64,000 nucleotides of DNA from an uncultured Clostridia bacterium. GTDB lineage: Bacteria; Bacillota; Clostridia; TANB77; CAG-508. The notes beneath the pieces are model-generated. The model was not told the origin of the DNA. It saw nothing but the letters and a program-made list of their open reading frames with translations, and did no database searches. Position 1 is the stretch's first letter. Every line of letters begins with the position of its first letter. The DNA is taken from NCBI GenBank assembly GCA_904381285.1, contig CAJFII010000007.1, forward strand, positions 10,958 to 74,957, in the 5' to 3' direction. Below, one piece after another: positions 5,056 through 37,573 of the stretch. Position numbers and translations under genes: made by a program.

Positions 5056-6186
5056 TTATTTTTTACCTAACTCTATCTTTACTGGACTTATAATCCCTTT
5101 TCTTTGTACTAATAATGTAATCTCATCTCCCGGACTTTTTGTATAAATATATTTTCTTAGTTCACTCATTTTATTTAGAGTTATTCCATCTATTTTGGTT
5201 ATTATATCTCCTGTTCTTATTCCAACTTTTTCTGCAGGACTATTTTTTATTACTTCCACAACATAAATTCCATTTTCAAATTCTATCCTTGAATCTAAAT
5301 ATGGTATTACATTTTTATCATATGAAAATATTCCTATACTTGCCTCTGTAAAATTTCCTGTCTCTTTATAACTTTGTATTATTGGTTTTATAATATTTAT
5401 TGGTATTGCAAATCCTATAGATTCTGCTGACTCTATTTTTATTGAATTTATTCCTATTACCTCTCCATTTGGATTTATTAGTGGTCCTCCACTATTTCCT
5501 GGATTTATTGTTGCATCTGTTTGTATTAAATCTTCCATATACGAAGTTTTATCTTCTTCTTCTATTTTTATTGTTCTATCTACAGCACTAATGATTCCTG
5601 ATGTTACTGTCCTTTGAAATTCAAAACCTATTGGATTTCCTATAGCATAGACCTTCTCTCCTGGGCGTATTTTATCCGAATCTCCTAGATTTGCATATTC
5701 TAATCCTTTTACATTAATTTTTATTATTGATAAGTCTAAATCTGTATCAGACCATACTACATTTGCTTGGTATTCTTTTCCGTTTTCTAATGTTACATAG
5801 CAACTACTGTATTTTGAGCCTGATACATGTTCATTTGTTACAATATATCCATCTTCTGAAACAATGATTCCTGTTCCTAATCCTAGTTTTATACTTCCAT
5901 CTGTTAAAAATATTGAATTACCATTATCCTGTAATTTTGAAATTCCTACAACTGAATTTGACACTTCTTCTACTACATCTGCTATTTGTTTACTTTCCTC
6001 ATTTGCTTGGGCTACTGTTTGAGATGTTTTTGTTGCACTATATTGTGTTTGGCTGTCATTATTATTAATATCTATATTTATGTATAAGTTAAATAGATAA
6101 AATCCCATTAGTGTTATAAAAAAAAGTATGCTCATTGTAACTACAACTGTTTTTAAATTATCATTTACTCTTTTTTTCTTTTTCAC
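5056..6186 (-). CDS. htrA: HtrA/DegP-family serine protease with N-terminal membrane anchor and C-terminal PDZ domain
   Basis: Trypsin-like catalytic motif TDATINPGNSGGPLIN, a His/Asp region, an N-terminal TM segment and a C-terminal PDZ-like region. Confidence 0.85.
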   Translation of the reverse strand: MKKKKRVNDNLKTVVVTMSILFFITLMGFYLFNLYINIDINNNDSQTQYSATKTSQTVAQANEESKQIADVVEEVSNSVVGISKLQDNGNSIFLTDGSIKLGLGTGIIVSEDGYIVTNEHVSGSKYSSCYVTLENGKEYQANVVWSDTDLDLSIIKINVKGLEYANLGDSDKIRPGEKVYAIGNPIGFEFQRTVTSGIISAVDRTIKIEEEDKTSYMEDLIQTDATINPGNSGGPLINPNGEVIGINSIKIESAESIGFAIPINIIKPIIQSYKETGNFTEASIGIFSYDKNVIPYLDSRIEFENGIYVVEVIKNSPAEKVGIRTGDIITKIDGITLNKMSELRKYIYTKSPGDEITLLVQRKGIISPVKIELGKK

Positions 6187-7699: not shown

Positions 7700-8716
7700 T
7701 TATATTCCTAACTCATATGCTTGTGTCTCTTCACTTCCATCTCCCCCGCCTATTACTTTGACGTTAGAATCTAGAGAAATACAAGGACGAAGCCCATGTC
7801 CAATCGAACGGCCATAAGTGCGGCCATCCGAAAGCACATAGCACAAATAGTTGCTGCGCAAGTCACCGCTGGCATACACAGCACGCACATAGAAATAGCA
7901 ATCAGACGAACGCGAACTCACATCACGGGATGCTAGCCAGTAAGTCTCCCCTGTTGTCCACATATCTCCACCTACTGCTTGCATTGCAGTTCGGTCTGTT
8001 TCATAATTTGTATCTGTATCTTTCATGTTGTTTACTCCTTCTATTGTCGATGATGGAGTGAATTGAAAATCATTAAATGGTCCTACCTCTTCTGTATTCT
8101 TTGCAGTAAATGTTCCATCTGCCCCTACTGTTGGCACACTTCCTACACATCTTCCATCTATCGCATATGGACTACTTTCTGCATAATAATATGCTGCTTC
8201 ATTTAATGTTTCTATTGCACTATTATAATTATCTCTTCCAGTTGCCCAACTACCTCCTCCTAATGTTACTTCTTCTACATTTTTGTCCGATATTATTTGC
8301 AATCCATATGTGTCGTCATTATATAATACTCTAAAGGTTAATACTCCTTTTTCTGTTCCTGTATCATATTTTACATAATCTCCTGGCTCTGCTATATCTT
8401 TTAATAGTCCTTTTACTACTGGTGTGTCTGTTCCACTTCCTCCGTTATTTCCTGTTCCTGCTATTATATTATTTATTTCATTTTCAAAATTAGCTAGTCC
8501 AGCTAGTTCTTGCTCTTGCGCTTGTGTGTAGTTTCTTCCTGCTTGCTCTGCTGTTCTAAATACTCCATTTTCTCCTAATGTTAGGTTTATTGTTACTCCT
8601 GCTAATATTAGTAACACAATAATTGTTATTACTAAAGCTATTAGCGTAATACCCTTACTGTTATTAATTAAATTCATGTTTTTTGTAGTTTTTGGATTTT
8701 TGCTTTTCTTACTCAT
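7700..8716 (-). CDS. Surface protein with N-terminal pilin-like/signal-anchor hydrophobic segment and a Cys-containing C-terminal domain. Paralog of the gene at 63727.
   Basis: MSKKSKNPKTTKNMNLINNSKGITLIALVITIIVLLILAGVTINLTLGENG... The AGGAGG RBS is 9 nt upstream of the ATG at 8714-8716, whereas the ORF track starts earlier at 8764. The first ~100 codons are ~90% nt-identical to 63727-64000. The 3' third (about 7740-8060) is about 45% GC against about 25% around it. The C-terminal ...TYWLASRDVSS...YFYVRAVYASG is faintly reminiscent of DUF1566/Lcl-C. Confidence 0.6.
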   Translation of the reverse strand: MSKKSKNPKTTKNMNLINNSKGITLIALVITIIVLLILAGVTINLTLGENGVFRTAEQAGRNYTQAQEQELAGLANFENEINNIIAGTGNNGGSGTDTPVVKGLLKDIAEPGDYVKYDTGTEKGVLTFRVLYNDDTYGLQIISDKNVEEVTLGGGSWATGRDNYNSAIETLNEAAYYYAESSPYAIDGRCVGSVPTVGADGTFTAKNTEEVGPFNDFQFTPSSTIEGVNNMKDTDTNYETDRTAMQAVGGDMWTTGETYWLASRDVSSRSSDCYFYVRAVYASGDLRSNYLCYVLSDGRTYGRSIGHGLRPCISLDSNVKVIGGGDGSEETQAYELGI

Positions 8717-9339
8717 TCTTTCGTGTTCCTCCTTTTTCTTTCTCATTTTTAATATTTTGTACATATTAGCAATTATTTATTCAAGCTATCTTTATTTAGG
8801 CATTTTCAAAAACTAAAACTTGCAAATTTTCTAAAAAAGCGTCTTGAAAGGAATTTGCTTTAGAGGTTCTTAAATAATTTTATGGAAAGCGTTCATTTTT
8901 AATGGAAGGGTGCCATAAAATTATTTTAGAAGCTCTTAGCAAATTAGCTTGAACAAGCTTTTTTGAAAATTAAAAGTTTGTTTTTGTAAAATGCTTTTAG
9001 CCTTATGTCTTTATTTTATAATTACAAATATTACTTGTCAAGCTACTTATATATCTTTTTTTCTTATTTTTCGAGTACTTCTACAGTTTTTGCTAATCAT
9101 TTGTTGCCATAAACTTTCCTGCTTTTTATTTTTACATTTTTCTTTGTATTTTTCTCTTTTTGTCGAAATTTAATATTTTATATTGTTTTTTGTACCAATT
9201 GTTGCTAAAATATTACATAGATATATAATTTTAGTTACATTTTACAAAATAGTTTTCTTTTTTTATTTTTAATTATATAATTTATGGGAATTATAAGAGA
9301 TTTTGTCTCTTATGGGATGTTTAATTTAAGGGTGATATT

Positions 9340-12300
9340 ATGAATAGAAAATTTTATGATTTAACTAATCCACAAAAATCTATTTTGCTTACAGAAGAGT
9401 TTTACAAAGGGACTAATATTAATAACATTTGTGGAACTGCTATTATTAAAAATGAGTTAAATTTTGAATTATTAAAAAAAGCTATTAGTCTTTTTATTAA
9501 GAACAATGATAGCTTTAGTTTAAAATTGACTCTAGATAATAACGAAGTTAAGCAGTATATTGGTGATATTGATACTGATAATATTACTATCGTGGATATT
9601 GAATCAAAAGATGATTTACCTAAACTTGAAAATGATATAATGAGTAAAGTTTTTGATGTTTATGATTCTAACTTATTTTCTTTTACTATTTTTAGATTTA
9701 AAGATAATACAGGCGGCTTTATTGCTAATGTTCATCATTTAATTGGTGACTCTTGGACATTAGGTATTATTGCCAATGAAATTGTTAGAATATATTCTTG
9801 TATTATTAACGGAGTTGATGTTGATAAAAACAACGAAAATTCTTATATAAATTATATTAATTCTGAAAAAGAATACTTAAATAGTGATAAATTTAAAAAG
9901 GATAAAGAGTATTGGAATAATGTTTTTAATACTATTCCTGAACAGGCTTCTATTCCTAGTTCAAAATTAAAAATTTCAAATGATGATTTTTCATGTATTG
10001 CAAATCGTAGTATTTTTAATATAGATAAATCTACAATAGATGAAATTACTGAATTTTGCAAATCTATAAATATTTCTGTTTTTAATTTCTTTATGGCTGT
10101 TTATTCTATTTATATTAGTAGAGTAAGTGGCTTATCTGATTTTGTAATTGGCACACCTATTTTAAATCGAACCAATTTCAAAGAAAAACATACAACTGGT
10201 ATGTTTATTAATACTTCCCCACTTAGAGTTTCAATTGATGATGATATAGATTTTAATACTTTTGCCTCTAATATTGCAAAAGATTCTTTAAGCATGCTTA
10301 GACATCAAAAATATTATTATCAAAATATTTTAGAGGATTTAAGAAATCGTGAACCTAATTTACCAAACTTATATAGTATTCTTATTTCATACCAAATAAC
10401 AAAGGCTAGTACTGAAAAAGGATTATCTTATACTACTCGTTGGAACTTTAATGGTACTTGTTCTGATGATATTGATATTCATTTATTTGATTTAAATGAC
10501 TCTGGAAGTATTAATATTGCTTATGATTATAAAGTTTCAAAATATGAAGATACTGATATTGCTAGTCTTCACAATCGTATTTTACATATTATTGAACAAA
10601 TTTTAAGTACTCCTAGTATAAACATTAAAGATATTGAAATTGTTACTAATAAAGAAAAAAATGATATTTTAAATAAGTTTAATAACACAAATAAAGATTT
10701 TCATTTTAAAAATAATATTATTGAAGTTATAAAAGATATCGCCTCAAGCAATCCAGATAAGGTTGCTATTGAAGCTGAAAATGATTGGATTAGTTATAAA
10801 GATTTAATTGACAGAGTAAATAAACTTTCTAATTATCTAATTACACAAACTGATTTAAACCAAAACTCTAATGTTGGTATTTTTACATATAGAAATATCG
10901 ATACTATTGTTGGTATTTTAGCAATTATTAATATTAATTGTACTTATGTTCCAATTGATCCTGAATATCCTGTAGACAGAATTAATTATATGATTGAGCA
11001 ATCAAAAATTACTACAATTCTTTCTACTGATTCTTCATGCAAGAATTTGGTTGAGTTTGATTTTCTAAAATTCATACCTATTAATTATAATTTATATAAA
11101 GATTGCAAAATTACAAATAATTTGTCATTTGATTATAATTTTGATAATAATTTATATATTATATTTACTTCAGGCTCTACTGGAAAACCAAAAGGTGTTA
11201 CTATCACTCATAAAAACATGATGAATTTAATTTTTCACGAAAAATATTGTACCGATATTTTTTCTAATAAAGGAAATCATAAAGTTTTACAATTTGCAAC
11301 TATGAGTTTTGATGTTAGTTACCAAGAAATTTTTTCTAGTTTACTAACTAGCTCTACTCTAGTTTTAATTAGTGATGAAAAAAGAAAAAATATTAAAAAG
11401 CTATCTGATTATATTGCTATAAAAAATATAGATACTTTATTTATTCCACCTGCATATTTACGTTTATTAACAGAAGATATTTCTACTCTAGAGAAGTTCT
11501 CTTCTTGTGTAAAAAATATAATTACAGCTGGTGAAGCATTATTAATTACAAGTGGTATAAATAAATTACTTTCTTGTGGAATTAAAATACATAATCATTA
11601 TGGTCCTGCTGAAACGCATGTTGCTACAACCTATACTTTAAATGAACCTCAAGAAACGGTAAATGTACCAATTGGTTATCCAATATCTAATACTTCTATT
11701 TACATTTTAGATGAGGCAAATCATTTATGTCCTTCAAATGTTAAAGGGCAAATTGCAATAGCAGGTGCCTGTGTTGGAAATGGATATGTAAATAGAGATG
11801 ATTTAACAAAACAAAGATTTATTAGTGATCCTTTTGTTCCTGGTAATAAGCTATATCTTACTGGTGATTTAGGATTTTGGGATAATTCTGGTTGTATTCA
11901 TTATATTGGAAGGTCAGATTTCCAAGTAAAAATTAATGGTTTTAGAATTGAATTACAAGAAATTGATAAAGTTTTATCTACCTTTGATACTATTACAAAT
12001 TGTATTTCAGTAGTACAAATAATAAATAATAAAAAATATATTATTACATATTATTGCGGAACAAAAAAATTCTCTGAAAATGAATTAAAAAATCATTTAA
12101 ATGAATTTTTACCTAAATTCATGATACCTTATAGATTAATTTATTTAGATAAATTGCCTTTAAATAACAATGGAAAAATCGACAGAAAGAAATTACCAAA
12201 TGTAGATTTGAACTTTTCAGATGAATTTGTCGCTCCTACTACAGAAACAGAAATAAAATTAGCTAAGATTTGGGACGAAATTTTTAATGTAGAAAAAATA

Positions 12301-15300
12301 AGTAATACTTCTGACTTTTTCAATATTGGAGGAGATTCTTTACTTGCAATTAAATTGTGTTCTAGAATTTTATCTAATTTTGATATAGATATAACTGTAG
12401 CAGACGTATTTAAATATCCAGTTTTACAAGATTTAGCTAAGTTTTTGGATTCTCATAAGAAATCCACTGCCAAAAATCTTATTTCAAAATGTGCTCATAT
12501 GGATTCTTATCCTTTATCTAGTGCACAAAAAAGGATTTATTATGCTACAAAATTAATTGATGATAATAATATTACATATAATATTCCTGGTGCATTACTA
12601 TTTAATGCAATTTTAGAAAAAGAGAAAATTATAGATGCTTTTAATAAGTTAATAAACATTCACGCTTCATTTAGAACTTGTTTTAGAATTATCAATAATG
12701 AACCTCGCCAAGTAGTTCTAGATAAAGTTAATTTTGATATAGAAACTTATTATGATACCGAAAAAAATATGCAATCAATTGTTGATAATTTTCCAAAACC
12801 TTTTGATTTAGCAAATGCTCCTTTGCTTCGTGTATGTATTTATTATTTAGATAACCAAAAAACTTTACTACTAATTGACTCTCATCATATTATATTAGAT
12901 GGACATTCATTAAATATTTTAATAAAAGACTTTTGTTCTTTATATTTGAATAATTCTATTGATGTACCATCTATTGAATATATCGATTATTCTGTATGGG
13001 AAGAGAATTATTTAAATACACCTGAAATAAAGTCAGCTGAAAATTATTGGCTTAATAAGTTTAAAGATTCAGAAATACCATCTATTAATTTGCCGTTTGA
13101 TTATAATGCTACAGCTAATCGTTCTTATAATGGTGATCAAATTAATATCTGTCTACCTGAAAACTTATTTGCCAGCTTAGATATGGTAGCAAAAAATAAC
13201 AATGTTTCTAATTACATGTTGTTCTTGACAATGTTTTATATTTTGTTATATAAATATACTTCTCAAAATAAAATTATTGTTGGAACACCTGTCGAAAATA
13301 GAGCTTCTGAAGAATTGAACAATATTCTAGGTATGTTTGTTAATAATATTGTTTTAGATTCAATAATTGACTCTAATAAAACTTTTACAGAATTTTTATT
13401 AGATGTTAAAGATATGGTTTTAAATGCCCTTAAATATCAATCTTATCCATATAATTTACTTGTTAAAAACCTATCTACTAACAATAATTTATTTGATGTA
13501 TTTTTTGTTTACCAAAATACTTATCAAGAAAAGGTAACTTTGGGTAATATTCCTTTAGAAATAGTAGAATCTAATTCACATACAGCTAAGTTTACTCTAT
13601 CTTTAGAAATTATTCCTAATTCTAATACTATTAAATTGAATTATTGCTCAGACTTATTCAAAAAAAGCACTATGGAACATATTCTATCAAACTATGTTAA
13701 TATACTAAAACTTGTTTCAAATGGCTTTAATGATAAAATATGTAATATGAATATTTTATCATCAAAAGAGACAAATCAATTACTTTACGATTTTAACAAT
13801 ACAAAATTAGAATACTCAAAAGAAAAAACTATTGCTCAACTATTTGAAGAGCAAGTAGAAAAAACGCCTAATTCATATGCTGTTATTTTTAAGGATAAAA
13901 AATTAACATATGATGAATTAAACAAAAAAGCCAACCAATTGGCATGGTATTTAAAAAATCAAGGTGTTAAAGAGCATGATATTATAGGAATTTCTATGAA
14001 TCGTTCTTCTGAAATTCTATTATGTATGATTGCCATTTTAAAATTGGGTGCTGCTTATTTACCTATTGATCCTACTTATCCAGAACATAGGGTTGAATAC
14101 ATAATTAATGATAGTAAAGTACGCATTATTTTAACTAAAAATAATTTAATTAATGTTTTCTCTAAAATGGCTAATGTTATTGCTGTAGATTTAGAGGACA
14201 GCCCAATTTATAATAGTGATTTAACATACAATCTTGGTAATTTAGGATCTGCAGATAATTTAGCATATTTAATTTACACATCCGGCTCAACTGGCAATCC
14301 AAAAGGCGTAATGTTAACAAATAGAAATGTTAATAATTTTATTACTGGCACATGTAACAAAATTGATTTCAAAAAATATTCAACTATTGTTTCTGTTACT
14401 ACAATGTGTTTTGATATATTTGTGTTAGAATCTTTGTTACCTTTAGAAAATGGATTAACTGTTATTATTGCAGATGAAGATGAACAAAATATACCTACTT
14501 TATTAAATAAACTATGTTTAGAAAACAATGTAGAAATGCTTCAAACAACACCTTCTAGAATGTCTTTACTAATGAGTGATGATACTTCTTTAGAATACTT
14601 AAAACAATTAAAATGTGTTATGATTGGTGGAGAACCTTTCCCAAGTAATTTATTAACTAATTTGCAAAAGTATTCTAATCTTAAAATTTATAATATGTAT
14701 GGTCCTACAGAGACAACAGTTTGGTCTACAATAAAAGATCTAACTAATACCTCTAATATTACAATTGGAACTCCAATTGCAAACACCACATGTTATATTT
14801 TAGATAAAGATTTAAACATGGTTCCAATTGGTGTCCCTGGAGAACTTTATATTGGTGGAGATGGCGTTTCAAATGGTTATCTAAATCGTGAAAACTTAAC
14901 AAAAGAAAAATTTATAAACAATCCTTTTATAAAAAATGATATAATATATAATACTGGTGATTTAGCTTCATGGAATTATAATGGAGAAATTAATTGTCTG
15001 GGTCGTTCCGATTTTCAAGTTAAAATAAGAGGATTACGTATAGAGCTCGGTGAAATAGAAAAACAAATGCTAGAATACCCTGGTATTATAAAGTCAGTTG
15101 TAAATGTTAAGAAGGATAATTTAGATAGACAAATGCTTTGTGGATATTTTGTTGCAAATACTAGAGTTTCTATATCAGATTTAAGAGATCATTTAAGTAA
15201 ATACTTACCTAACTACATGGTACCTAGCTATTTAATGCAATTAGATGATTTCAATTATACTCCTAATGGAAAGATTGATAAAAAAGCATTACCTACTCCT

Positions 15301-16776
15301 AAAATAGAAGTAAGTAAAACTATCATTGCTCCTGAAACATCTTTGGAGAAATTGATTGCATCTTTATTTGAAGAACTTCTTGGAGTTTCACCTATTAGTA
15401 TTAATGATAACTTTTTTGAAATTGGTGGAGATTCCATTTTAGCATTGAAACTTCAAATGAAACTATTAAATAATAATATAAATATTTCTTATTCTGACAT
15501 TTATAAATACAATACAGTAAAAGAATTAGCTTTGAAAATAGAAACCATTCAAAATACTTATAATGCTGTACTAGATGACGAATATGATTTTACAAATATA
15601 AATTCTGTATTATCTAATAATATTTCAGATAATTTAGATAATATAAATTTTCACGATATTGGTAATGTATTATTAACTGGTAGTACAGGATTTTTAGGAG
15701 CTCACATATTATCTTATTTATTGGATAATACAGATAGTATTGTATATTGTCTTATACGAAAAGATCCTAGTACTTCTGTTAAAGATAAATTACTTAAGAA
15801 ATTATCATATTATTTCGGCGAAAAATATCATGATTTAATCGGTAACAGAATTATAGTAATAAATTCTGACATTACTAAACCTGATTTGGGTCTTACAGAT
15901 AATAAATTACAAGATTTATTTAGTAATATATCTTGCGTTATAAATAGTGCAGCTACTGTAAAACATTATGGATATTATAGTAATTTCGAAGAAATTAATG
16001 TAAATGCTGTAAAATATTTGGTAAAATATTGTGAACAATTTAATAAAAAATTAGTACAAATTTCAACTATTAGTGTTTCTGGTAATACCCTAACAGATTT
16101 AGCTATTAATCATCAAACTTTCAAATCTGATGTTTATTTTGATGAGACTTCTCTTTACATAGGTCAAGATTTAAGTAATCTTTATGTTAAGAGTAAATAT
16201 GAAGCTGAAAAATATATTTTACAAGAAATTTATGATAATAATTTAGATGCAATTATTTTAAGAATTGGTAATATAACAAACAGAGCTTCTGATGGTGTTT
16301 TTCAATATAATTCTAATGAAAACGCTTTTATGCATAGAATACAGGCTTTACTTGAACTAAAAATGATTCCAGATTATATATTAGATAATTATGTTGAATT
16401 TAGCCCTGTTGATTTAGTTGCTACTGCTGTTGTTAAGAGCATCCAATATGTAAACAAATCAATAAGTGTATTGCATATATATAATTATAATCATGTTTTA
16501 ATTCGTGATTTGATAAATTTATTTGATACTAAAATTGATATTGTTTCTTCTGATACTTTTAAAAATGTTTTACAAAAAAAGCTAAAGGAAAACAACAAGT
16601 TAATTTATATAACTAATGATTTAGATAAGGACTTTAAACTTGTTTATTATTCTAATATTAAGATTAGAAATAATTTATCAAAAGACTTCTTTAATAAAAT
16701 TAATTTTACTTGGAACATAATTGACAAAAAATATATCTCTCAAATGTTGGAGGAATTAACTAAGGAGGAAAAATAA
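9340..16776 (+). CDS. Two-module nonribosomal peptide synthetase, domain order C-A-T-C-A-T-R (terminal NAD(P)H-dependent thioester reductase)
   Basis: C1 HHLIGDSWT (aa ~132). A1 FTSGSTGKPKG (aa ~609), NHYGPAETHV, GRSDFQVKINGFRIEL. T1 GGDSL (aa ~997). C2 HHIILDGHSL (aa ~1182). A2 YTSGSTGNPKG (aa ~1647), NMYGPTETTV, GRSDFQVKIRGLRIELGEIE. T2 GGDSIL (aa ~2029). R domain VLLTGSTGFLGAH Rossmann motif (aa ~2112) plus YVKSK (YxxxK). Confidence 0.92.
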   Translation: MNRKFYDLTNPQKSILLTEEFYKGTNINNICGTAIIKNELNFELLKKAISLFIKNNDSFSLKLTLDNNEVKQYIGDIDTDNITIVDIESKDDLPKLENDIMSKVFDVYDSNLFSFTIFRFKDNTGGFIANVHHLIGDSWTLGIIANEIVRIYSCIINGVDVDKNNENSYINYINSEKEYLNSDKFKKDKEYWNNVFNTIPEQASIPSSKLKISNDDFSCIANRSIFNIDKSTIDEITEFCKSINISVFNFFMAVYSIYISRVSGLSDFVIGTPILNRTNFKEKHTTGMFINTSPLRVSIDDDIDFNTFASNIAKDSLSMLRHQKYYYQNILEDLRNREPNLPNLYSILISYQITKASTEKGLSYTTRWNFNGTCSDDIDIHLFDLNDSGSINIAYDYKVSKYEDTDIASLHNRILHIIEQILSTPSINIKDIEIVTNKEKNDILNKFNNTNKDFHFKNNIIEVIKDIASSNPDKVAIEAENDWISYKDLIDRVNKLSNYLITQTDLNQNSNVGIFTYRNIDTIVGILAIININCTYVPIDPEYPVDRINYMIEQSKITTILSTDSSCKNLVEFDFLKFIPINYNLYKDCKITNNLSFDYNFDNNLYIIFTSGSTGKPKGVTITHKNMMNLIFHEKYCTDIFSNKGNHKVLQFATMSFDVSYQEIFSSLLTSSTLVLISDEKRKNIKKLSDYIAIKNIDTLFIPPAYLRLLTEDISTLEKFSSCVKNIITAGEALLITSGINKLLSCGIKIHNHYGPAETHVATTYTLNEPQETVNVPIGYPISNTSIYILDEANHLCPSNVKGQIAIAGACVGNGYVNRDDLTKQRFISDPFVPGNKLYLTGDLGFWDNSGCIHYIGRSDFQVKINGFRIELQEIDKVLSTFDTITNCISVVQIINNKKYIITYYCGTKKFSENELKNHLNEFLPKFMIPYRLIYLDKLPLNNNGKIDRKKLPNVDLNFSDEFVAPTTETEIKLAKIWDEIFNVEKISNTSDFFNIGGDSLLAIKLCSRILSNFDIDITVADVFKYPVLQDLAKFLDSHKKSTAKNLISKCAHMDSYPLSSAQKRIYYATKLIDDNNITYNIPGALLFNAILEKEKIIDAFNKLINIHASFRTCFRIINNEPRQVVLDKVNFDIETYYDTEKNMQSIVDNFPKPFDLANAPLLRVCIYYLDNQKTLLLIDSHHIILDGHSLNILIKDFCSLYLNNSIDVPSIEYIDYSVWEENYLNTPEIKSAENYWLNKFKDSEIPSINLPFDYNATANRSYNGDQINICLPENLFASLDMVAKNNNVSNYMLFLTMFYILLYKYTSQNKIIVGTPVENRASEELNNILGMFVNNIVLDSIIDSNKTFTEFLLDVKDMVLNALKYQSYPYNLLVKNLSTNNNLFDVFFVYQNTYQEKVTLGNIPLEIVESNSHTAKFTLSLEIIPNSNTIKLNYCSDLFKKSTMEHILSNYVNILKLVSNGFNDKICNMNILSSKETNQLLYDFNNTKLEYSKEKTIAQLFEEQVEKTPNSYAVIFKDKKLTYDELNKKANQLAWYLKNQGVKEHDIIGISMNRSSEILLCMIAILKLGAAYLPIDPTYPEHRVEYIINDSKVRIILTKNNLINVFSKMANVIAVDLEDSPIYNSDLTYNLGNLGSADNLAYLIYTSGSTGNPKGVMLTNRNVNNFITGTCNKIDFKKYSTIVSVTTMCFDIFVLESLLPLENGLTVIIADEDEQNIPTLLNKLCLENNVEMLQTTPSRMSLLMSDDTSLEYLKQLKCVMIGGEPFPSNLLTNLQKYSNLKIYNMYGPTETTVWSTIKDLTNTSNITIGTPIANTTCYILDKDLNMVPIGVPGELYIGGDGVSNGYLNRENLTKEKFINNPFIKNDIIYNTGDLASWNYNGEINCLGRSDFQVKIRGLRIELGEIEKQMLEYPGIIKSVVNVKKDNLDRQMLCGYFVANTRVSISDLRDHLSKYLPNYMVPSYLMQLDDFNYTPNGKIDKKALPTPKIEVSKTIIAPETSLEKLIASLFEELLGVSPISINDNFFEIGGDSILALKLQMKLLNNNINISYSDIYKYNTVKELALKIETIQNTYNAVLDDEYDFTNINSVLSNNISDNLDNINFHDIGNVLLTGSTGFLGAHILSYLLDNTDSIVYCLIRKDPSTSVKDKLLKKLSYYFGEKYHDLIGNRIIVINSDITKPDLGLTDNKLQDLFSNISCVINSAATVKHYGYYSNFEEINVNAVKYLVKYCEQFNKKLVQISTISVSGNTLTDLAINHQTFKSDVYFDETSLYIGQDLSNLYVKSKYEAEKYILQEIYDNNLDAIILRIGNITNRASDGVFQYNSNENAFMHRIQALLELKMIPDYILDNYVEFSPVDLVATAVVKSIQYVNKSISVLHIYNYNHVLIRDLINLFDTKIDIVSSDTFKNVLQKKLKENNKLIYITNDLDKDFKLVYYSNIKIRNNLSKDFFNKINFTWNIIDKKYISQMLEELTKEEK

Positions 16777-18564
16777 ATGGATTTATTATTATTAAGTTTA
16801 TCATGCCTTTTTGTTTTGATTATTTATTTATTTATTAATAAATTTCAAAATAAATCTCAATTAACATCTATATTTTCTTTAAATCTTGTATTACTACTTG
16901 TTTGGGATTCTGCCTTAATTTTACAACTATTATTTAAAGATGTTAATCCTATTTACTTTGATTATGTAGCATATATCGCAATATGTTTTATTCCAATTAC
17001 AATGCTATTAATGGGGCTTATTTTTGCTAATACTAAAATTAAATTTAAAAAACATTATTTATTATTATTTATAGTTCCTACAATTTCATTGTTCTTATTG
17101 TGGACAAATGATTTGCACCATTTGTTTTATGTAAGCTATTCTGTTTCTATAAGTGATGCTGTTTTTGGACCATATTTTATAGTTCATTCAATATATACAT
17201 ATGGCTTACTTTTTATTGCTTTATTTTATTTGCTAATATATTCAATTAGAAATTCAGGATTTTTTTCAAAACAATCTTTGCTTATATTAGCAGGAACACT
17301 GATTCCTATTTTAATAAATCTTCTTGGATATTTAGGTTTTCTAAATAATTCAATTTATACCACACCAATATCTTTTTCTATTGGTATGATTTGTTATGCT
17401 CTTGCTATTTTTAAATTTAAGTTTTTAAGTGTTACACCTATTGCATTACAGAGAATTGTAGATAGAATGTCAGATAGTTATATTGTTTTAAATGAAAATA
17501 ATGTTATTACGGATTTTAATAGTACTTTTTTAACTACTTTTAACGTAAAATCAAATGATGTTAGAAATCGTAATATTGTAGATTTAATTAGTAGATTTGG
17601 CGAAAAAAATATTAATATAGATAATTTATTAATAATTTTAAGTAAAGTAAAAAATTCTAATACTACTTTTAATTATGAAAAACATTTTGAAAGTATAAAT
17701 AAATATTTTAATATTGAAATTAACAGTATTCAATCAAATGATAAATATATTGGTACACTTATATTACTTAAAGATATCACTCAACATGTTGAAGATATGA
17801 ATACTATTAAAGAAAATCAGGACTTGTTAGTTGAAAAGGAACGACTTGCTTCACTTGGTCAACTTGTTGGTGGTATTGCTCATAACTTAAAAACTCCAAT
17901 TATGTCGATTGCAGGTGCTGCTGAAGGATTAACAGATTTAGTAAAAGAATATGATTCTTCTATTGACGACCCTGAAGTAACACACCAAGATCATCATGAA
18001 ATTGCACATGATATGGATGTTTGGATTGAAAAAATTAAGACTCATGCTTCTTATATGTCTGATGTTATTACAGCAGTAAAAGGACAAGCAGTTAATTTAA
18101 ATGAAGATGAACAAGATACTTTTACGATTGATGAACTTATGAAGAGAGTAAATATTTTAATGAAACACGAACTAAAAAATGCTTTAATAGATTTAAATAT
18201 TAATACAAATTCTAATAATTTAATAACTTTACATGGAAATGTTAATGGATTAGTACAAGTTATTAATAATTTAATTTCTAATGCTATTCAAGCATATAAT
18301 GGCGTGCCAAATAAATCTATTGATTTAACTGTTACCAAAAAAGATTCAGAAATTATTATTTCTGTACAGGATTATGGTTGTGGTATTCCTAAAGAAGTTC
18401 AAGATAAATTGTTTAAAGAAATGATTACAACCAAAGGAAAGAATGGTACTGGACTTGGATTATTTATGTCATATTCAACTATACGTGGACATTTTGATGG
18501 TAATATTACTTTTGAGTCAAAAGAAGGATTTGGTACTAGATTTGATATAATTCTTCCTTTATAA
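16777..18564 (+). CDS. Sensor histidine kinase with N-terminal multi-pass (about 6-7 TM) membrane sensor domain, PAS-like linker, HisKA and HATPase_c
   Basis: Hydrophobic N-terminal 230 aa, an H-box GGIAHNLKTP, and G-boxes GCGIP / GTGLGLF. The ATG directly abuts the NRPS stop (TAAATG) with AAGGAGGA inside the NRPS 3' end, indicating translational coupling. Confidence 0.85.
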   Translation: MDLLLLSLSCLFVLIIYLFINKFQNKSQLTSIFSLNLVLLLVWDSALILQLLFKDVNPIYFDYVAYIAICFIPITMLLMGLIFANTKIKFKKHYLLLFIVPTISLFLLWTNDLHHLFYVSYSVSISDAVFGPYFIVHSIYTYGLLFIALFYLLIYSIRNSGFFSKQSLLILAGTLIPILINLLGYLGFLNNSIYTTPISFSIGMICYALAIFKFKFLSVTPIALQRIVDRMSDSYIVLNENNVITDFNSTFLTTFNVKSNDVRNRNIVDLISRFGEKNINIDNLLIILSKVKNSNTTFNYEKHFESINKYFNIEINSIQSNDKYIGTLILLKDITQHVEDMNTIKENQDLLVEKERLASLGQLVGGIAHNLKTPIMSIAGAAEGLTDLVKEYDSSIDDPEVTHQDHHEIAHDMDVWIEKIKTHASYMSDVITAVKGQAVNLNEDEQDTFTIDELMKRVNILMKHELKNALIDLNINTNSNNLITLHGNVNGLVQVINNLISNAIQAYNGVPNKSIDLTVTKKDSEIIISVQDYGCGIPKEVQDKLFKEMITTKGKNGTGLGLFMSYSTIRGHFDGNITFESKEGFGTRFDIILPL

Positions 18565-18604
18565 AATAGATTTAGCTTAATATTGTTAACATCTTAGTTA
18601 CAAA

Positions 18605-18645
18605 AAAGCACAGAACTTAAATTTTTAGTTTTGTGCTTTTTTATT
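18605..18645 (+). terminator. Rho-independent terminator after the histidine kinase
   Basis: AAGCACAGAAC...GTTTTGTGCTTTTTT hairpin with a T-run. Confidence 0.5.
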
Positions 18646-18805
18646 GGTAAAAATTACCTAAAACTTAAAAATTACTGTATAAATTCTGTCGTTTTTTGTT
18701 CTTTTGTGTCATTTTTTCTGTGCAAATATTAATTTTTTTTATTTTTGTCTTGCTTTTATTAAATATTATTAATATAATATTGCTTGAAAGTAAGAGGTGA
18801 ACTTT

Positions 18806-19861
18806 ATGAGAAAAGGTAATATTGAGCATCCATCTAATGGTTATAAAATTATTGTAGTTGATGATGAAATTGGAATAATTGATTCTCTTTCTATTTTCTT
18901 AAAACGATCTGGATATGAATTTACTGGTGTTACTGATCCTATTAAAGCTATTGAAATGGTTAAAAATGAACATTTTGATTTAATGATTTTAGATTTTATT
19001 ATGACACCAATTCATGGAGATCAAGTTGTTGAAGAAATTAGAAAATTTAACAAAGAATTATATATTTTATTATTAACTGGACATAAAGATTTGGCTCCTC
19101 CTTTAGATACAATTAGGAGATTAGATATACAAGGATATTGTGAAAAGAGCGATAAATTTGACCAATTACTTTTATTAATTGAATCTGGAATTAAAGCTAT
19201 TTCTCAAATGAATTTAATTAAAAAAATTAATATTGAGTTAAAAGATACTTATGAGAAATTGGAACGTTCATATATGGAAAGTATCCAAACTATACGATAT
19301 ACTGTTGAAGCAAAAGATGCTTATACTCGAGGCCATTCAGATCGTGTTTCAGAATATAGTGTATTAATTGGTAAGCACATGGGACTATCTGAAGAAGATT
19401 TGAGAACTTTACGTATAGGTGGATTGTTCCACGACGTTGGTAAAATTGGTGTGCCTGACAGTATTTTACTAAAACCTGGTAAATTAACAGATGATGAATA
19501 TTCTGAAATAAAAAATCATCCAACTATTGGTGCCCACATTTTATCTACAGCAACTATTTTTAGAGATTTAATTCCTATTGTAAAGCATCATCATGAAAGA
19601 TATGATGGAAATGGATATCCTAGCAGATTAAAAGGAGAAGAAATACCATTTTTAGCTAGAATAACTGCTGTAGCAGATACTTTTGATGCCATGACATCAA
19701 AAAGAACTTATAGAGATTCTTTACCATTAGATGTTGTAAAAGCAGAAATTGAAAAGTGTAAAGGAACGCAATTTGATCCTGAAATTGCAGATGTATTTTT
19801 AGACATATTAAATAATCATTATGATGATATAGTTGAAATTCAAAATAGGTATATTTCGTAA
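18806..19861 (+). CDS. Response regulator with REC domain and HD-GYP (c-di-GMP phosphodiesterase) output domain
   Basis: REC: IIVVDDE...D...LMILD...K. HD-GYP: HSDRV...GGLFHDVGK...HHERYDGNGYP. The preferred start is the ATG at 18806 (AAGAGGTGA RBS) rather than the GTG at 18797. Confidence 0.85.
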   Translation: MRKGNIEHPSNGYKIIVVDDEIGIIDSLSIFLKRSGYEFTGVTDPIKAIEMVKNEHFDLMILDFIMTPIHGDQVVEEIRKFNKELYILLLTGHKDLAPPLDTIRRLDIQGYCEKSDKFDQLLLLIESGIKAISQMNLIKKINIELKDTYEKLERSYMESIQTIRYTVEAKDAYTRGHSDRVSEYSVLIGKHMGLSEEDLRTLRIGGLFHDVGKIGVPDSILLKPGKLTDDEYSEIKNHPTIGAHILSTATIFRDLIPIVKHHHERYDGNGYPSRLKGEEIPFLARITAVADTFDAMTSKRTYRDSLPLDVVKAEIEKCKGTQFDPEIADVFLDILNNHYDDIVEIQNRYIS

Positions 19862-24902: not shown

Positions 24903-25574
24903 ATGGATTTAGGAAGTAAAATTTGTAAATTAAGAAAAGATTCAAAAATGTCACAAGAGCAATTATCTGAAAAATTGAATGTTACTAGACAAACTATTTC
25001 AAATTGGGAATTAGGACAAACTGTACCTGATATATTTCAAGCAAAAGAAATTTCAAAAATATTTAATATTAGCTTAGATGAGCTTATGGATAATGATATA
25101 AAGAATATTCTAGTAGAAAAAGTTACTAATACAGAAAAAATGGCTAATACTACAATTAGAATCTTTAAATTTTTATCATTTATTATAATATGTATCCTTT
25201 TAATAGTTATTTCTTTGAATTTATTTTTTGTAATAAAAAACAGAAAAGAAACTACGGAATTGCAAAAAGAACAACAAATTCAAGAGCAAGCATTCAAAGA
25301 ATACATGGCAGATTCAGTATCTAAACGATTTAATATTAAAATAGACAATCAAGAATATGAATACTGTATACAATACGGCCCGGATTTTAAACCAATTAGT
25401 GAGCAAATTTCTTTAAAAAGTACTCCTAGTGATGAACTAATAGATAAATTTAATTCTTACTATATATATTTAAAAGGAACTTATGATATATATACAGATG
25501 CTAGAAAAAGAATAACAGATTTAAAACAATATTTTATTGATAAAGGAGGCTTTTGGGAAGAAGTATATTATTAA
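24903..25574 (+). CDS. XRE-family HTH transcriptional regulator with central TM segment and C-terminal extracytoplasmic domain
   Basis: N-terminal HTH LRKDSKMSQEQLSEKLNVTRQTISNWE and a TM segment FLSFIIICILLIVISLNLFFVI. Confidence 0.6.
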   Translation: MDLGSKICKLRKDSKMSQEQLSEKLNVTRQTISNWELGQTVPDIFQAKEISKIFNISLDELMDNDIKNILVEKVTNTEKMANTTIRIFKFLSFIIICILLIVISLNLFFVIKNRKETTELQKEQQIQEQAFKEYMADSVSKRFNIKIDNQEYEYCIQYGPDFKPISEQISLKSTPSDELIDKFNSYYIYLKGTYDIYTDARKRITDLKQYFIDKGGFWEEVYY

Positions 25575-25640
25575 AATCAAATCAATAATATTTTTAGTAA
25601 AGCATGTCTGAATTCCAGTTGTGCTTTTTCTAACAAAATT

Positions 25641-26525
25641 TTAACTAAATAGTTTTTGATTTTTTCTGTTATCTAAATCTTCTACTTTTTTAATGCTATT
25701 ACTATCTTGCAAAATACTATATTGCTTTTTAGCTATTGCATTTAATCTTTCAAGTCTTACATTTTGTTCTATTCCTTGAGCTATCATTTCGCTATTTAAG
25801 TTCTCTAAATTACTTAAAATTATTAGCTGAAGAATATTAGCATAATCTCTCATATTACCATCTAAATCAGGATTTTTATCCTTCCATTCCTTTGCAGTCA
25901 TTCCAAATAATGCAACATTTAAAATATCTGCTTCATTTGCATACACATATAATTTCTGTTTTTCAGTTAGCGTTGGAATTATATTTTCTTTTATGCTATC
26001 AGTATGTATTTTATAATTTGTTTTTGCAAGTTCTCGTCTAACTGACCAATTAATTTTGTTTTGATAACTTTCATTTTGTTTTAGTCTTTCAAATTCTTTT
26101 ACTAAATATAATTTAAATTCCGCACTTATCCAACTTGCAAATTCAAAAGCTATATCTGGATGAGCATAAGTTCCACTATTATATCTACCTTGTTTTGATA
26201 TTATTCCAATTGCATTTGTTGAACCTATCCACTTTTTAGGAGTCATTACAAAAGAATGTGTACCAGCTTCATTTTTAAACCCATCGAATTCGGTGGAATT
26301 AAAATTTTGATTATATAACATCTCCCATGTTCCTACATATTCCAATGTATGTTTGCTTCTAAGCCAGTTTTGAATAATATAATCAAATCTTTCTTCATCT
26401 TTGAATTTAGCTAAATCTGTTAAAGAAATATAATCTACATTACCAACTCTCATAACTTTTATAGACGTATCTTTTACTACTATTTCTGTTTTTATGAGTT
26501 CTTTCTTCATAAATACCACTTCCAT
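25641..26525 (-). CDS. KilA-N domain protein (phage-derived DNA-binding family)
   Basis: N-terminal ...IKVMRVGNVDYISLTDLAKFKDEERFDYIIQNW matches the KilA-N/APSES pattern. The likely true start is MKKELIK at ~26510. Confidence 0.55.
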   Translation of the reverse strand: MEVVFMKKELIKTEIVVKDTSIKVMRVGNVDYISLTDLAKFKDEERFDYIIQNWLRSKHTLEYVGTWEMLYNQNFNSTEFDGFKNEAGTHSFVMTPKKWIGSTNAIGIISKQGRYNSGTYAHPDIAFEFASWISAEFKLYLVKEFERLKQNESYQNKINWSVRRELAKTNYKIHTDSIKENIIPTLTEKQKLYVYANEADILNVALFGMTAKEWKDKNPDLDGNMRDYANILQLIILSNLENLNSEMIAQGIEQNVRLERLNAIAKKQYSILQDSNSIKKVEDLDNRKNQKLFS

Positions 26526-32281: not shown

Positions 32282-32358
32282 TGGAGCCACTTCTCAGATT
32301 CGAACTGAGGACCCCCGCATTACAAGTGCGGTGCTCTGGCCAACTGAGCTAAAGTGGC
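32282..32358 (-). tRNA. tRNA-Thr (anticodon TGT)
   Basis: Manual fold: acceptor GCCACTT/AAGTGGC, anticodon loop CTTGTAA, T-arm GGGGGTCCTCAGTTCGAATCTGAG, CCA. Confidence 0.85.
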
Positions 32359-32360
32359 GT

Positions 32361-32435
32361 TGGTGACCCGTACGGGATTCGAACCCATGTCTCCGCCGTG
32401 AAAGGGCGGTGTATTAACCTCTTTACCAACGGGCC
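32361..32435 (-). tRNA. tRNA-Glu (anticodon TTC)
   Basis: Manual fold: GGCCCGTTGGTAAAGAGG..., anticodon loop CTTTCAC, T-arm GTTCGAATCC, CCA. Confidence 0.85.
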
Positions 32436-32474
32436 AAATATAAAAGAATGCTAAATTTTCATTTAGTATTCTTT

Positions 32475-32550
32475 TGGTGAGCCATCGCAGACTCGAACTG
32501 CGGACAACTTGATTAAAAGTCAAGTGCTCTACCACCTGAGCTAATGGCCC
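32475..32550 (-). tRNA. tRNA-Lys (anticodon TTT)
   Basis: Manual fold: GGGCCATTAGCTCAGGTGGTAGAGC, anticodon loop CTTTTAA, T-arm GTTCGAGTC, CCA. Confidence 0.85.
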
Positions 32551-33151: not shown

Positions 33152-34876
33152 ATGACCATAAAAAAAGTTTTTCATAGGCTATTTTTTTGTTTTATTTTTT
33201 GGTTTATAGTCTGTTTAATTGGCTTTATATTGTTTAAACCTATTTATTTATCTAATTCTATAATTATTCCATATTCTCTACATCCTTATGATATATGTAT
33301 TACAAAACCGGATTTATGGAGAACAATCAAAATTTGTTTTATTATTTTTTATATAATTTCATCAATTATTTATTCAAATTTTTTATATTCTTTATTTTTC
33401 CGAAAATATTTAATTAATAAAGAAAAAATAGATAAAAAAAACAATAATCTTATTAAACCAATTTCTAATAGTAAAAATTTATTTTTATTTGTTGGAAAAA
33501 ATGAAAATGATAATTTAGTTTATATTCCAGAAAAAAGTTTATACCAAAATATTTTAATTACTGGCACTATTGGTAGTGGAAAAACAAGTTCATGCATGTA
33601 TCCTTTTACAAAACAATTAATTAGTTTTAATAAAAATGATATTAATTCTAAATTAGGTATGTTAATTTTAGATGTAAAAGGAAATTATTATCGCGAAGTT
33701 ATTAATTTTGCAAAAAACGCAAATCGTTTAGATGATTTATTTATTATTGAACTTGGTAAAAATGTTAAGTATAATCCTCTCGACAAGCCAAATTTAAAAC
33801 CCAGTGTACTTGCAAACAGATTAAAAACTATTCTTATGCTTTTTTCTCCAAACAATTCCGAATCATATTGGCTTGATAAAGTAGAACAAGTTCTGACAGA
33901 AGCAATTAAATTTTGTAGGTTATATAATGATGGATATGTTACTTTTTTAGAACTTCATAAATTAATTACAATTCCAAATTATTTCATTGATAAATTAGAC
34001 ATAATAAAAGATATTTTTATATCTGGAAAACTATCTAAAAAAGATTGTTATGATGCGATTTCTTCAGTTGAATTTTTCGAAAAAGAATTTAATTCTTTAG
34101 ATAACAGAACTTCTTCTATTATTAAATCAGAAATTACTCGTATTACAAATTGTTTTGTTTCAGATTATGATGTAATGAATACTTTTTGTCCTAAAAAAGA
34201 AGATATTACTTTTCCTGGCTTTAGAGATTTAGTAGATAATGGTAAAATTGTTGTCTTAAATATGAATATTGCAGAATATAGAAATTTATCTAAAATTATT
34301 GCCACTTATTTAAAGTTAGATTTTCAAACAGAAGTTATGAATAGACTTAATAGGTATAGTGATAATTCTTTCAGAAGTGTAGCCTTTATTTGTGACGAAT
34401 TTCATGAATATTGTTCTAGTTCAGATGCAGATTTCTTTGCCCAATCAAGAGAAGCGAAATGTATAAATATAGTTGCAACACAAAGTTATTCTTCCTTATT
34501 AAACTCTATTAATAATCAATATGCTGTAAAAGTAATTATACAAAATTTAATAAACAAATTTTGGTTTAGAACTGATGACATTAATACAATTGATGATATT
34601 CAAAAACAAATTGGTAAAGAAGATAAAATTAAAGTATCTAAGAGCATTTCTGAAAATGCTAAAGAAACTCATTATAGTTATTTCACAAAATCTTTAAATT
34701 CCAAAGATTCTAATTTGTCTGAGAGTATAAGTGAATATGTCCAAAATGATTATATTTACGATACTAATTTTTTCACTATGGAATTAGAAACATTTTCTTG
34801 CTTATCTTTTTTGTCTGATGGATATAAAATTTTAAAACCCATGAAATTAAAATTAATTCCCTATTTTTTAAAATAA
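33152..34876 (+). CDS. Type IV secretion coupling protein (VirD4/TraG/TraD-like) with N-terminal TM helices
   Basis: Two or three N-terminal TM helices. Walker A ITGTIGSGKTSS, followed by LILDVKGNY (T4CP DPKGE-like motif) and NPLD. FICDEFHEY is Walker-B-like, and ATQSYSSL is a C-terminal T4CP-type motif. Confidence 0.7.
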   Translation: MTIKKVFHRLFFCFIFWFIVCLIGFILFKPIYLSNSIIIPYSLHPYDICITKPDLWRTIKICFIIFYIISSIIYSNFLYSLFFRKYLINKEKIDKKNNNLIKPISNSKNLFLFVGKNENDNLVYIPEKSLYQNILITGTIGSGKTSSCMYPFTKQLISFNKNDINSKLGMLILDVKGNYYREVINFAKNANRLDDLFIIELGKNVKYNPLDKPNLKPSVLANRLKTILMLFSPNNSESYWLDKVEQVLTEAIKFCRLYNDGYVTFLELHKLITIPNYFIDKLDIIKDIFISGKLSKKDCYDAISSVEFFEKEFNSLDNRTSSIIKSEITRITNCFVSDYDVMNTFCPKKEDITFPGFRDLVDNGKIVVLNMNIAEYRNLSKIIATYLKLDFQTEVMNRLNRYSDNSFRSVAFICDEFHEYCSSSDADFFAQSREAKCINIVATQSYSSLLNSINNQYAVKVIIQNLINKFWFRTDDINTIDDIQKQIGKEDKIKVSKSISENAKETHYSYFTKSLNSKDSNLSESISEYVQNDYIYDTNFFTMELETFSCLSFLSDGYKILKPMKLKLIPYFLK

Positions 34877-34899
34877 TTTTATTTTAGGAGGTATTATAT

Positions 34900-35229: not shown

Positions 35230-35244
35230 TAGGAGGTTAATTTA

Positions 35245-36123: not shown

Positions 36124-36138
36124 TATTGGAGGTAACAT

Positions 36139-36423: not shown

Positions 36424-36584
36424 TAGTTGCGTATTTTATATTTATAGTAGTCTCTGTCTTGTAAGCATCATATTAATTTTTATTCTACTTTTTGTTGTAT
36501 TAATTCTGTTAAAATGATATAATTTGATATATTACTACATAAGATAAAAATTTATATATAATGTATACAAGGAGAGACCTATTT

Positions 36585-37550: not shown

Positions 37551-37573
37551 AAAAATATTTAGGAGTTTTACTT

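Follow-up and report, generated by a model that had tools for sequence, protein, structure and literature searches.

Why should a nonribosomal peptide synthetase (NRPS) gene run directly into a gene for a seven-transmembrane (7TM) sensor kinase, and does that kinase sense what the synthetase makes? The arrangement occurs in a 64,000-nucleotide stretch of DNA from an uncultured Clostridia bacterium (hereafter the window), where a response regulator gene of the REC-HD-GYP type follows the kinase. A first-pass annotation, made from the sequence letters, described the locus as a minimal single-gene biosynthetic cluster with its own signalling arm. We consider it moderately probable that the NRPS and the 7TM kinase are a signal synthase and its receptor, with the REC-HD-GYP protein as a constant output. 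Within species, the specificity code of the adenylation (A) domains and the 7TM sensor of the kinase are replaced together while the flanks stay 97-99% identical. This co-replacement and the universal linkage of NRPS and kinase also support the first-pass description.

Joint replacement of adenylation domains and kinase sensor

A metagenome scan with the kinase family provided 80 loci, taken from more than 570 of the clade and mostly from gut samples. Species groups were defined by identities of at least 95% in the kinase core, at least 96% in the regulator and at least 96% in Tex, the product of a neighbouring gene. The codes of A domains were read by alignment anchored on GrsA-PheA, and the GrsA control gives DAWTIAAICK. 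Where two strains have the same A codes (59 pairs), sensor identity is at least 0.90 in all, with a median of 1.00. Where the codes differ (29 pairs), it is below 0.90 in 25, with a median of 0.81, and no such pair keeps its sensor above 96% identity. Sensor identity correlates with the identity of whichever A domain, A1 or A2, has diverged more (rho 0.66, p 6e-5). The PAS domain and the kinase core show no such correlation, and the regulator likewise stands outside the pattern. In species groups with differing sensors, kinase cores remain 94-100% identical (99-100% in most cases), and the N-terminal condensation domain (C1) is 97-100% identical within species even where the adjacent A1 is swapped.

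Three strain pairs are decisive, because in them the changes in A1-T1 (A1 with its carrier domain T1) and in the sensor are physically separate. Loci L142 and L151 are 99.1% identical over 18.5 kb apart from two blocks, one of 1.85 kb (NRPS residues 499-1083, A1-T1; 53% nucleotide identity) and one of 0.59 kb (NRPS residue 2468 to kinase residue 183; 61% nucleotide identity), which are separated by 4.2 kb of 95-100% identity. The two-block pattern is repeated in L107 versus L115 and in L126 versus L146; across all three pairs the intervening 3.3-4.4 kb are roughly 92-100% identical, and the flanks 98.6-99.1%. Other allele pairs differ by one contiguous block, which covers the whole NRPS or extends onwards from A1 or from the start of C2. 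These single blocks always end sharply inside the kinase gene, either at about residues 208-235 (the sensor/PAS boundary) or at residue 346 (the PAS/core boundary, as in L115 versus L085). The window's own species is represented by two contigs, which are 79-93% identical over the NRPS and the whole kinase and 94-99% identical over everything downstream.

Exchange is also apparent between species. Two species whose kinase cores, regulators and Tex proteins are 0.64, 0.75 and 0.74 identical have sensors that are 0.82-0.96 identical and, where the A1 allele matches, NRPS domains that are 0.87-0.99 identical, all at the protein level. In nucleotides, identity from the NRPS through the sensor is 74-100% (mostly at least 93%, with a dip to 74-81% across A2), and in the flanks it is 30-80%. 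A near-identical NRPS and sensor thus stand on a diverged core and diverged flanks, and we therefore conclude that the cassette moved between species onto a resident kinase core, with a breakpoint that lies within the kinase gene. Alleles of one predicted outside loop of the sensor recur with matching A1 codes across species groups (DAQF with ININEGVPG, and DVCY with YLYLSDCxVGP), a NINECxYG loop accompanies three of the four Thr alleles, and loop alleles largely track A1 alleles. Within-species co-replacement of the kind that marks pherotype systems such as agr, comQXP and Vfm is present in these loci, with partial exceptions in L138 and the L134 group.

The same co-variation could arise by hitch-hiking, if the kinase senses an unrelated cue and the NRPS and sensor merely share one recombination-prone, fast-evolving stretch. 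Each would then diversify separately, for example the products against host or competitor proteases and the surface loop against phage. Several observations lean in this direction or weaken the case for a synthase-receptor pair. Partial Mantel correlations across all haplotypes, with kinase-core distance controlled, are significant for every NRPS domain and follow proximity to the sensor, being higher for the reductase domain R (0.76) and C2 (0.75) than for A2, and higher for A2 than for A1 (0.49). Since the sensor correlates best with the physically nearest NRPS domains, plain linkage must contribute. Most allele replacements are single contiguous blocks. L138 is discordant, combining a DVCY A1 code with a DAQF-type loop. 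In the L134 group, strains with the same NRPS have sensors that are 0.90-0.98 and PAS domains that are 0.73-0.99 identical, and an A1 swap alters the sensor by only 4-9%. The within-species pairs are interdependent, and amount to about seven allele replacements in five species groups. Finally, metagenome contigs can be chimeric; several of the haplotypes recur in two to seven independent assemblies.

Global Mantel tests cannot separate function from linkage, so we relied instead on the within-species two-block cases, in which conserved DNA lies between the changed A1-T1 and the changed sensor. Hitch-hiking also fits poorly with the lack of any pair that changes its A codes and keeps a near-identical sensor, with the recurrence of block ends at sensor/PAS or PAS/core boundaries and the sharing of such a breakpoint by the cross-species transfer, and with a linkage that persists even where NRPSs differ in module number. 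We regard it as an unlikely explanation of the pattern.

Linkage of the synthetase, kinase and regulator

Wherever the 80 loci extend far enough upstream (about 75 contigs), the kinase is directly preceded on its own strand by a full-length NRPS (38-55% identical). Eight of the 80 contigs, including L114, begin too near the kinase for the presence of an NRPS to be judged. The first-pass annotation had tied its proposal to the kinase and regulator not occurring in relatives that lack the NRPS, and wherever at least 1 kb of upstream sequence is available no kinase ortholog without an NRPS was found (L114, at 3.8 kb, being set aside). L114 had appeared to be a kinase without an NRPS, but its 3.8-kb contig breaks within a repeat-rich spacer and it was not counted as an exception. 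The sequence upstream of its kinase leader (L114:1-850) is unrelated to the NRPS of the near-identical L109 and contains an open reading frame (ORF) of 144 residues resembling S-adenosylmethionine-dependent methyltransferases. Either an insertion into the NRPS-kinase spacer or a chimeric join there accounts for it.

Spacing from the NRPS stop to the kinase start is -13 to +20 nucleotides in 62 of 77 loci, and longer spacers often carry hairpins. One species group has spacers of 230-314 nucleotides composed of tandem AT-rich repeats of ~30 nucleotides (L109:9675-9988 and L127:9753-9982), and in other species groups hairpins are found within NRPS-kinase spacers of 39-72 nucleotides. Such repeats and hairpins could tune the ratio of kinase to NRPS expression.

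A like gene order was observed at independently sampled NRPS homologs of 84% and 57% identity, with NRPSs of 2472, 3536 (three modules) and 3020 residues, and in a metagenome-assembled genome (MAG). The regulator lies downstream of the kinase in nearly all loci and is 65-85% identical across the clade. It forms a separate unit: some loci have it in the opposite orientation, and in others remnants of mobile elements have displaced it.

Synteny extends over the whole neighbourhood, and we therefore view it as a core locus passed down vertically in a low-GC clade of gut Clostridia, rather than as an island. Shared inheritance might by itself account for the gene order, if the genes for HtrA, NRPS, kinase, regulator, DUF975, Tex and ABC-F proteins descended together without functional coupling; that the synteny extends to housekeeping genes across the clade is consistent with this. 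However, NRPS and kinase stay abutting on one strand in loci where insertions or inversions have affected the regulator, and in L170 the order of NRPS, kinase and regulator persists although the upstream context differs. Synteny also leaves the co-variation of A codes and sensors unexplained, and we consider it a very improbable account.

The synthetase and its predicted product

The three ORFs reported by the first-pass annotation are all present at its coordinates, on the forward strand. The NRPS (9340..16776) has 2478 residues, and its proposed order of two condensation-adenylation-carrier modules and a terminal reductase (C-A-T-C-A-T-R) is upheld by Pfam domains (Condensation twice, E 1e-178; AMP-binding twice, 5e-149; PP-binding twice; NAD_binding_4, 9e-46) as well as by core motifs. 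In a family alignment of 20 members, comprising the window protein and 19 relatives of 44-84% identity, all catalytic signatures are invariant. C1 (about residues 3-440; 9346..10659) carries the motif H132-H133-x3-D137 (HHxxxD at 9733-9750), and C2 (residues 1055-1482; 12502..13785) carries H1182-H1183-x3-D1187-G1188 (HHxxxDG at 12883-12903). The carrier domains have invariant serines, S1000 (12337-12339) in T1 (residues 974-1036; 12259..12447; Pfam PP-binding), where G997 and D999 are also invariant, and S2032 (15433-15435) in T2 (about residues 2003-2068; 15346..15543).

The R domain (residues 2109-2478; 15664..16773) retains an invariant NAD(P)H motif, G2114-x-T2116-G2117-x2-G2120 (15679-15699), and the invariant catalytic pair Y2282-x3-K2286 (16183-16197). 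Its closest solved relatives are an NRPS didomain of peptidyl carrier protein and reductase, 6vtj (E 2e-52), and the AusA R domain, 4f6c (3e-36). The reductase end proposed in the first-pass annotation thus has its catalytic residues, and the motifs and solved relatives suggest a competent terminal thioester reductase.

A1 (about residues 455-960; 10702..12219) has the Stachelhaus code DVQFIAHVAK and A2 (residues 1502-1978; 13843..15273) the code DILQMGMVWK, which, going by published codes, we take to be Pro-like and Gly-like. Together with the terminal R domain, these codes point to a predicted Pro-Gly aldehyde or alcohol, which would be N-acylated if C1 acts as a starter domain. Matches of C1 to sequences in the PDB mix LCL and starter C domains at similar E-values. 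Codes vary widely among relatives and include Gly-like, Val-like and Pro-like codes, the canonical Thr code, and several without an assignment.

More than 1700 relatives of the NRPS were found at E<=1e-50, including many proteins of ~2470 residues with a like architecture and three-module versions of ~3500 residues. A scan of a genome collection with the NRPS alignment was swamped by generic NRPSs because the patterns chosen were universal core motifs, and only L005 belongs to the family. A full-length relative is present in a Methanobrevibacter sp. MAG (L061; 31% identity over residues 4-2473), and 6vtj, the best solved relative of the R domain, comes from an archaeal NRPS. Both cases would be in keeping with exchange of this type of NRPS between methanogens and gut Clostridia. 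The NRPS is divided into two ORFs in L085, L087, L097, L100, L102, L115, L151, L152, L157, L155 and L164. As the split is identical in three independent assemblies (L151, L152 and L157), it may reflect a fixed frameshift or an NRPS that truly consists of two proteins, rather than an error of assembly.

The absence of adjacent thioesterase, MbtH or transporter genes had been remarked on, and Pfam and other domain scans of the window agree; they also found no phosphopantetheinyl transferase or GGDEF gene adjoining the locus. Rfam detected no riboswitch or known RNA ahead of the NRPS, either in the window or in seven related loci.

The junction, the kinase and the regulator

At the NRPS-kinase junction (16762..16779, forward strand), the TAA stop codon (16774-16776) abuts the kinase ATG (16777-16779), and a ribosome-binding site within the NRPS coding sequence, AAGGAGG (16762-16768), lies 8 nucleotides upstream of that ATG, as the first-pass annotation had observed. 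The kinase is probably made from the NRPS mRNA by translational coupling.

The kinase (595 residues; 16777..18564) contains the Pfam domains HisKA_7TM, PAS, HisKA and HATPase_c. The match to HisKA_7TM (PF16927; 1e-37) scores 130.6 bits, compared with a cut-off of 28.6, and that to HATPase_c scores 75.9 bits. These domains, and an H369 that is invariant in the family alignment, place it among two-component sensor kinases of the HisKA_7TM type. An AlphaFold2 model (mean pLDDT 70, and 75-90 over most of the membrane domain) has seven N-terminal helices, at residues 2-23, 28-52, 58-85, 92-109, 132-160, 165-185 and 195-211, in agreement with the 7TM architecture initially proposed. The 7TM sensor (residues 1-222; 16777..17442), the part that co-varies with the A-domain code of the NRPS, has no sequence match in the PDB, and a Foldseek search with the kinase matched only PAS-DHp-CA kinases and nothing in the 7TM part.

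Between the fourth and fifth helices is a loop (residues 110-131; 17104..17169) that is predicted to face outside, with the topology derived by applying the positive-inside rule to the model. Its first half, WTNDLHHLFYxxYS in the window and WTNxxHHLFYxxYS in the family, is nearly invariant (entropy 0.79 bits), whereas the second half (residues 123-131) is hypervariable (2.13 bits). A cytoplasmic PAS domain (residues 223-345; 17443..17811), assigned by Pfam and the model, leads to the DHp-CA core (residues 346-595; 17812..18561), in which the phosphoacceptor His369 (17881-17883) lies within GGIAHNLKTPIMSI. Hundreds of relatives of the kinase are 61-73% identical to it, so the kinase is better conserved than the NRPS.

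The intrinsic terminator predicted after the kinase (18602..18642, forward strand) was confirmed as a stem-loop with a U-tract that folds at -26.2 kcal/mol (z = -5.1), which no shuffled sequence equals; a simple consensus scan had overlooked it because its loop is long. The promoter that the first-pass annotation gave the regulator is putative: matches to sigma-70-like promoters numbered 115, compared with 105 expected from shuffled sequence, and the scan is uninformative in such AT-rich DNA.

Beyond the terminator, the response regulator (351 residues; 18806..19861, forward strand) likewise agrees with its initial description as REC-HD-GYP, having the Pfam domains Response_reg, HD_5 and HD. 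It likely starts at ATG 18806, as in the public gene call, and not at GTG 18797. The residues expected of both domains are present: Asp63 in REC, H209-D210 (HD at 19430-19435), and an HHExxDGxGYP motif, HHHERYDGNGYP, at 19586-19621. Its closest solved relatives are V-cGAP3 (5z7c; 2e-44), which is specific for 3'3'-cGAMP, and PmGH (4mcw; 1e-43), a c-di-GMP enzyme, and either nucleotide may be the substrate of the HD-GYP domain, judging from these matches. The score for the NosR family of NCBIfam (211) is below the cut-off of 400. An exact look-up of the regulator for same-species alleles returned only the window's own contig.

Proposed mechanism

If the NRPS and kinase are a synthase-receptor pair, the NRPS would build a dipeptide on T2, in the window from Pro and then Gly and possibly with N-acylation by C1, and the R domain would free it reductively as an aldehyde or alcohol. 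The kinase, translated from the NRPS mRNA, would bind this product with its 7TM domain, chiefly through the outward loop that follows the invariant WTNxxHHLFY motif. A simple model is that the invariant half of the loop would bind whatever is constant in the product, with its side chains read by the variable half. Ligand binding would change both the autophosphorylation of His369 and phosphotransfer to the regulator's Asp63, although that these two proteins are phosphotransfer partners is itself a prediction. The HD-GYP domain would then hydrolyse either c-di-GMP or 3'3'-cGAMP as its cyclic dinucleotide. Within a species, strains would hold alternative, matched alleles of A domain and sensor as specificity groups, and the NRPS-plus-sensor cassette could be transferred between species onto a resident kinase core.

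A broader proposal is that the reductase-terminated NRPSs of this lineage are autoinducer synthases, whose peptide aldehydes act as pherotype signals through co-evolving 7TM kinases and HD-GYP regulators, with A-domain swaps matched by sensor swaps and the cassette exchanged between species. We give this about an even chance.

Self-monitoring is another possibility. The 7TM domain might bind, within the membrane, the product of its own cell, serving feedback, self-protection or control of export, and tune cyclic dinucleotides without any signalling between cells. This would account equally well for the co-variation, so that the data favouring cell-cell signalling are also explained by monitoring of a membrane-resident product. 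It is in keeping with the co-translation of synthase and sensor, with an N-terminal C domain that suggests a lipophilic, membrane-resident acyl-peptide, and with domain scans of the window that revealed no exporter gene within the cassette. This last result also belongs with the points that count against a synthase-receptor pair, as do an HD-GYP output that is without an obvious route back to NRPS transcription and the lack of any c-di-GMP riboswitch detected by Rfam in the window or seven related loci. The case for the NRPS product as the kinase ligand is built from sequence throughout, and the same is true of the direction of regulation and of the choice between sensing among cells and autocrine sensing. 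On the other hand, many matched alleles within a species are the pattern of recognition between cells, as in agr, com and Vfm (PMC9306890), and self-monitoring has no obvious need of them; the variable determinant is, moreover, predicted to face outward. We therefore hold self-monitoring to be rather unlikely, and favour the synthase-receptor pair.

Understood as such a pair with its regulator, the locus is a signal-synthase/receptor cassette with specificity groups that joins parts not previously joined and is widespread in gut bacteria. In the human gut microbiome, reductase-terminated NRPSs rank among the commonest biosynthetic genes, and discussion of what they make has centred on the inhibition of proteases, either in the host or in other bacteria. 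If our reading is correct, peptide aldehydes would gain a native function in strain-specific signalling or kin recognition tied to second-messenger control, which would explain the high variability of A domains in this NRPS family and provide a non-ribosomal analogue of agr in human and animal guts. The hypothesis is immediately testable, because some natural pairs of strains are distinguished by A1-T1 and the sensor alone. Beyond this locus, within-species co-replacement could be used to match orphan natural products with their receptors, a logic shared by the study of Vfm in Dickeya.

The surrounding DNA

The window is part of a 195-kb metagenome scaffold with a G+C content of ~25%, and the host lineage of the locus consists of uncultured Clostridia of very low GC (about 24-30%). 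It contains gyrA and gyrB, and the sign of the GC skew flips near 52 kb (about 51000-53500), next to gyrB and the ORFs upstream of it. The window is thus near the probable chromosomal origin of replication, which would be in the region of the sign change.

Upstream of the NRPS are genes for an HtrA-like protease and for hisS, and downstream are those for a DUF975 protein, Tex and an ABC protein (all by Pfam), the last being of the ABC-F type without a membrane domain. The divergent HtrA/DegP-like serine protease with a PDZ domain (5056-6186, reverse strand) is kept across the clade in most related loci, at 44-73% identity (mostly 53-67%). A protease beside a synthetase of predicted protease-reactive peptide aldehydes is curious, and may be mere synteny. 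Between hisS and the NRPS is a 354-residue ORF (7700-8764, reverse strand) with no match in Pfam or NCBIfam; it is missing from the related MAG locus L165, where hisS directly precedes the NRPS. The 575-nucleotide gap upstream of the NRPS (8765-9339) contains a long imperfect palindrome (8828-8969) with 32-nucleotide arms (75% complementary) and additional outer arms. Rfam has no family that matches it above threshold, and a small repeat element and a regulatory hairpin are both possible identities for it.

Several regions resemble insertions. A helix-turn-helix repressor-like gene and a KilA-N gene between the ABC-F and DUF378 genes (24903-26525) are missing at the matching position in L165, which suggests a small mobile insertion. 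After three tRNA genes (32285-32550) come ORFs similar to TraG/VirD4 coupling protein, DnaD/DnaB_2 and DnaC/IstB (33152-38572), which are probably an integrated element beside the tRNA cluster. A stretch of very low GC (16-20%) between gyrA and gyrB (41267-46000) contains ORFs for a ParA-like protein and a TraG-P-loop ATPase, an unusual insertion separating the gyrase genes.

Comparison with known systems

Gut Clostridia reportedly possess C-A-T-C-A-T-R NRPSs that make dipeptide aldehydes or pyrazinones, and a rup pathway for ruminopeptin is said to operate in R. bromii. The window NRPS is similar in having this domain order in one protein at a single-gene locus, and in its predicted reductive release of a possibly N-acylated dipeptide aldehyde. 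Its host is consistent with gut-associated Clostridia, as it derives from a metagenome scaffold and the records of its relatives bear the titles human gut metagenome or Clostridia bacterium MAG. The resemblance is one of architecture and habitat only. The products of the gut dipeptide-aldehyde and rup systems have been interpreted as inhibitors of host or bacterial proteases, whereas we read the product of the window NRPS as a signal, and to our knowledge these NRPSs have not been reported to have a co-evolving sensor kinase or an HD-GYP arm. A search of full-text literature, which is incomplete and so yields absence of evidence only, found no publication tying reductase-terminated gut NRPSs to a 7TM kinase or HD-GYP protein. 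The gut-Clostridia dipeptide-aldehyde NRPSs and the rup/ruminopeptin pathway are treated in a review (PMC12327764).

The best NCBIfam match of the window NRPS is AusA (NF047350), at 1392 bits, which covers residues 944-2471 only and is below the cut-off of 2500. AusA, which makes aureusimine/phevalin in Staphylococcus aureus, is also a two-module NRPS with a closely related solved R domain, and frees a dipeptide aldehyde. Unlike AusA (A-T-C-A-T-R), the window NRPS has an extra C1 at residues 1-440, and AusA is not known to have an adjacent kinase or regulator.

In the Rpf/DSF system of Xanthomonas, much as is proposed here, the gene for synthesis of a small lipophilic signal is beside that of a multi-pass membrane sensor kinase with a REC-HD-GYP partner (RpfF, RpfC and RpfG). 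The output there is hydrolysis of a cyclic dinucleotide and not DNA binding, as is predicted for our system. However, RpfF is a crotonase, RpfC is a hybrid kinase with a 5-TM input, and the system is proteobacterial. The window synthase is an NRPS and its kinase lacks REC or HPt domains by Pfam, so that the window system may work like Rpf at its output without being a member. We know of no pherotype-like allelic diversification in Rpf/DSF.

The agr system of staphylococci (AgrBD-AgrC-AgrA) and comQXP of Bacillus resemble the window system in their allelic structure. In each, a hypervariable block spans signal synthesis and the membrane sensor of the kinase, the kinase core and regulator are constant, and a species has several alleles, which are common to different species. 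Those systems use ribosomal peptide signals and DNA-binding regulators (LytTR and NarL-type), whereas the signal here would be non-ribosomal, with specificity set through A-domain swaps.

In the Vfm system of Dickeya, polymorphism of A-domain signatures within a species predicted signal specificity groups, which were verified with biosensors (PMC9306890). Its 26-gene cluster encodes stand-alone A domains and has a transcriptional output, and the membrane protein that co-varies with the signatures is the ABC permease VfmG and not the kinase VfmI (PMC9306890). The window system differs in that it has only three genes: its modular NRPS ends in an R domain, the co-varying protein is a 7TM kinase, and the output is of the HD-GYP type. 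Both systems have NRPS-type adenylation, Stachelhaus polymorphism within species, a co-varying membrane protein and two-component transduction, and Vfm is the closest precedent for the logic of matched A-signature groups.

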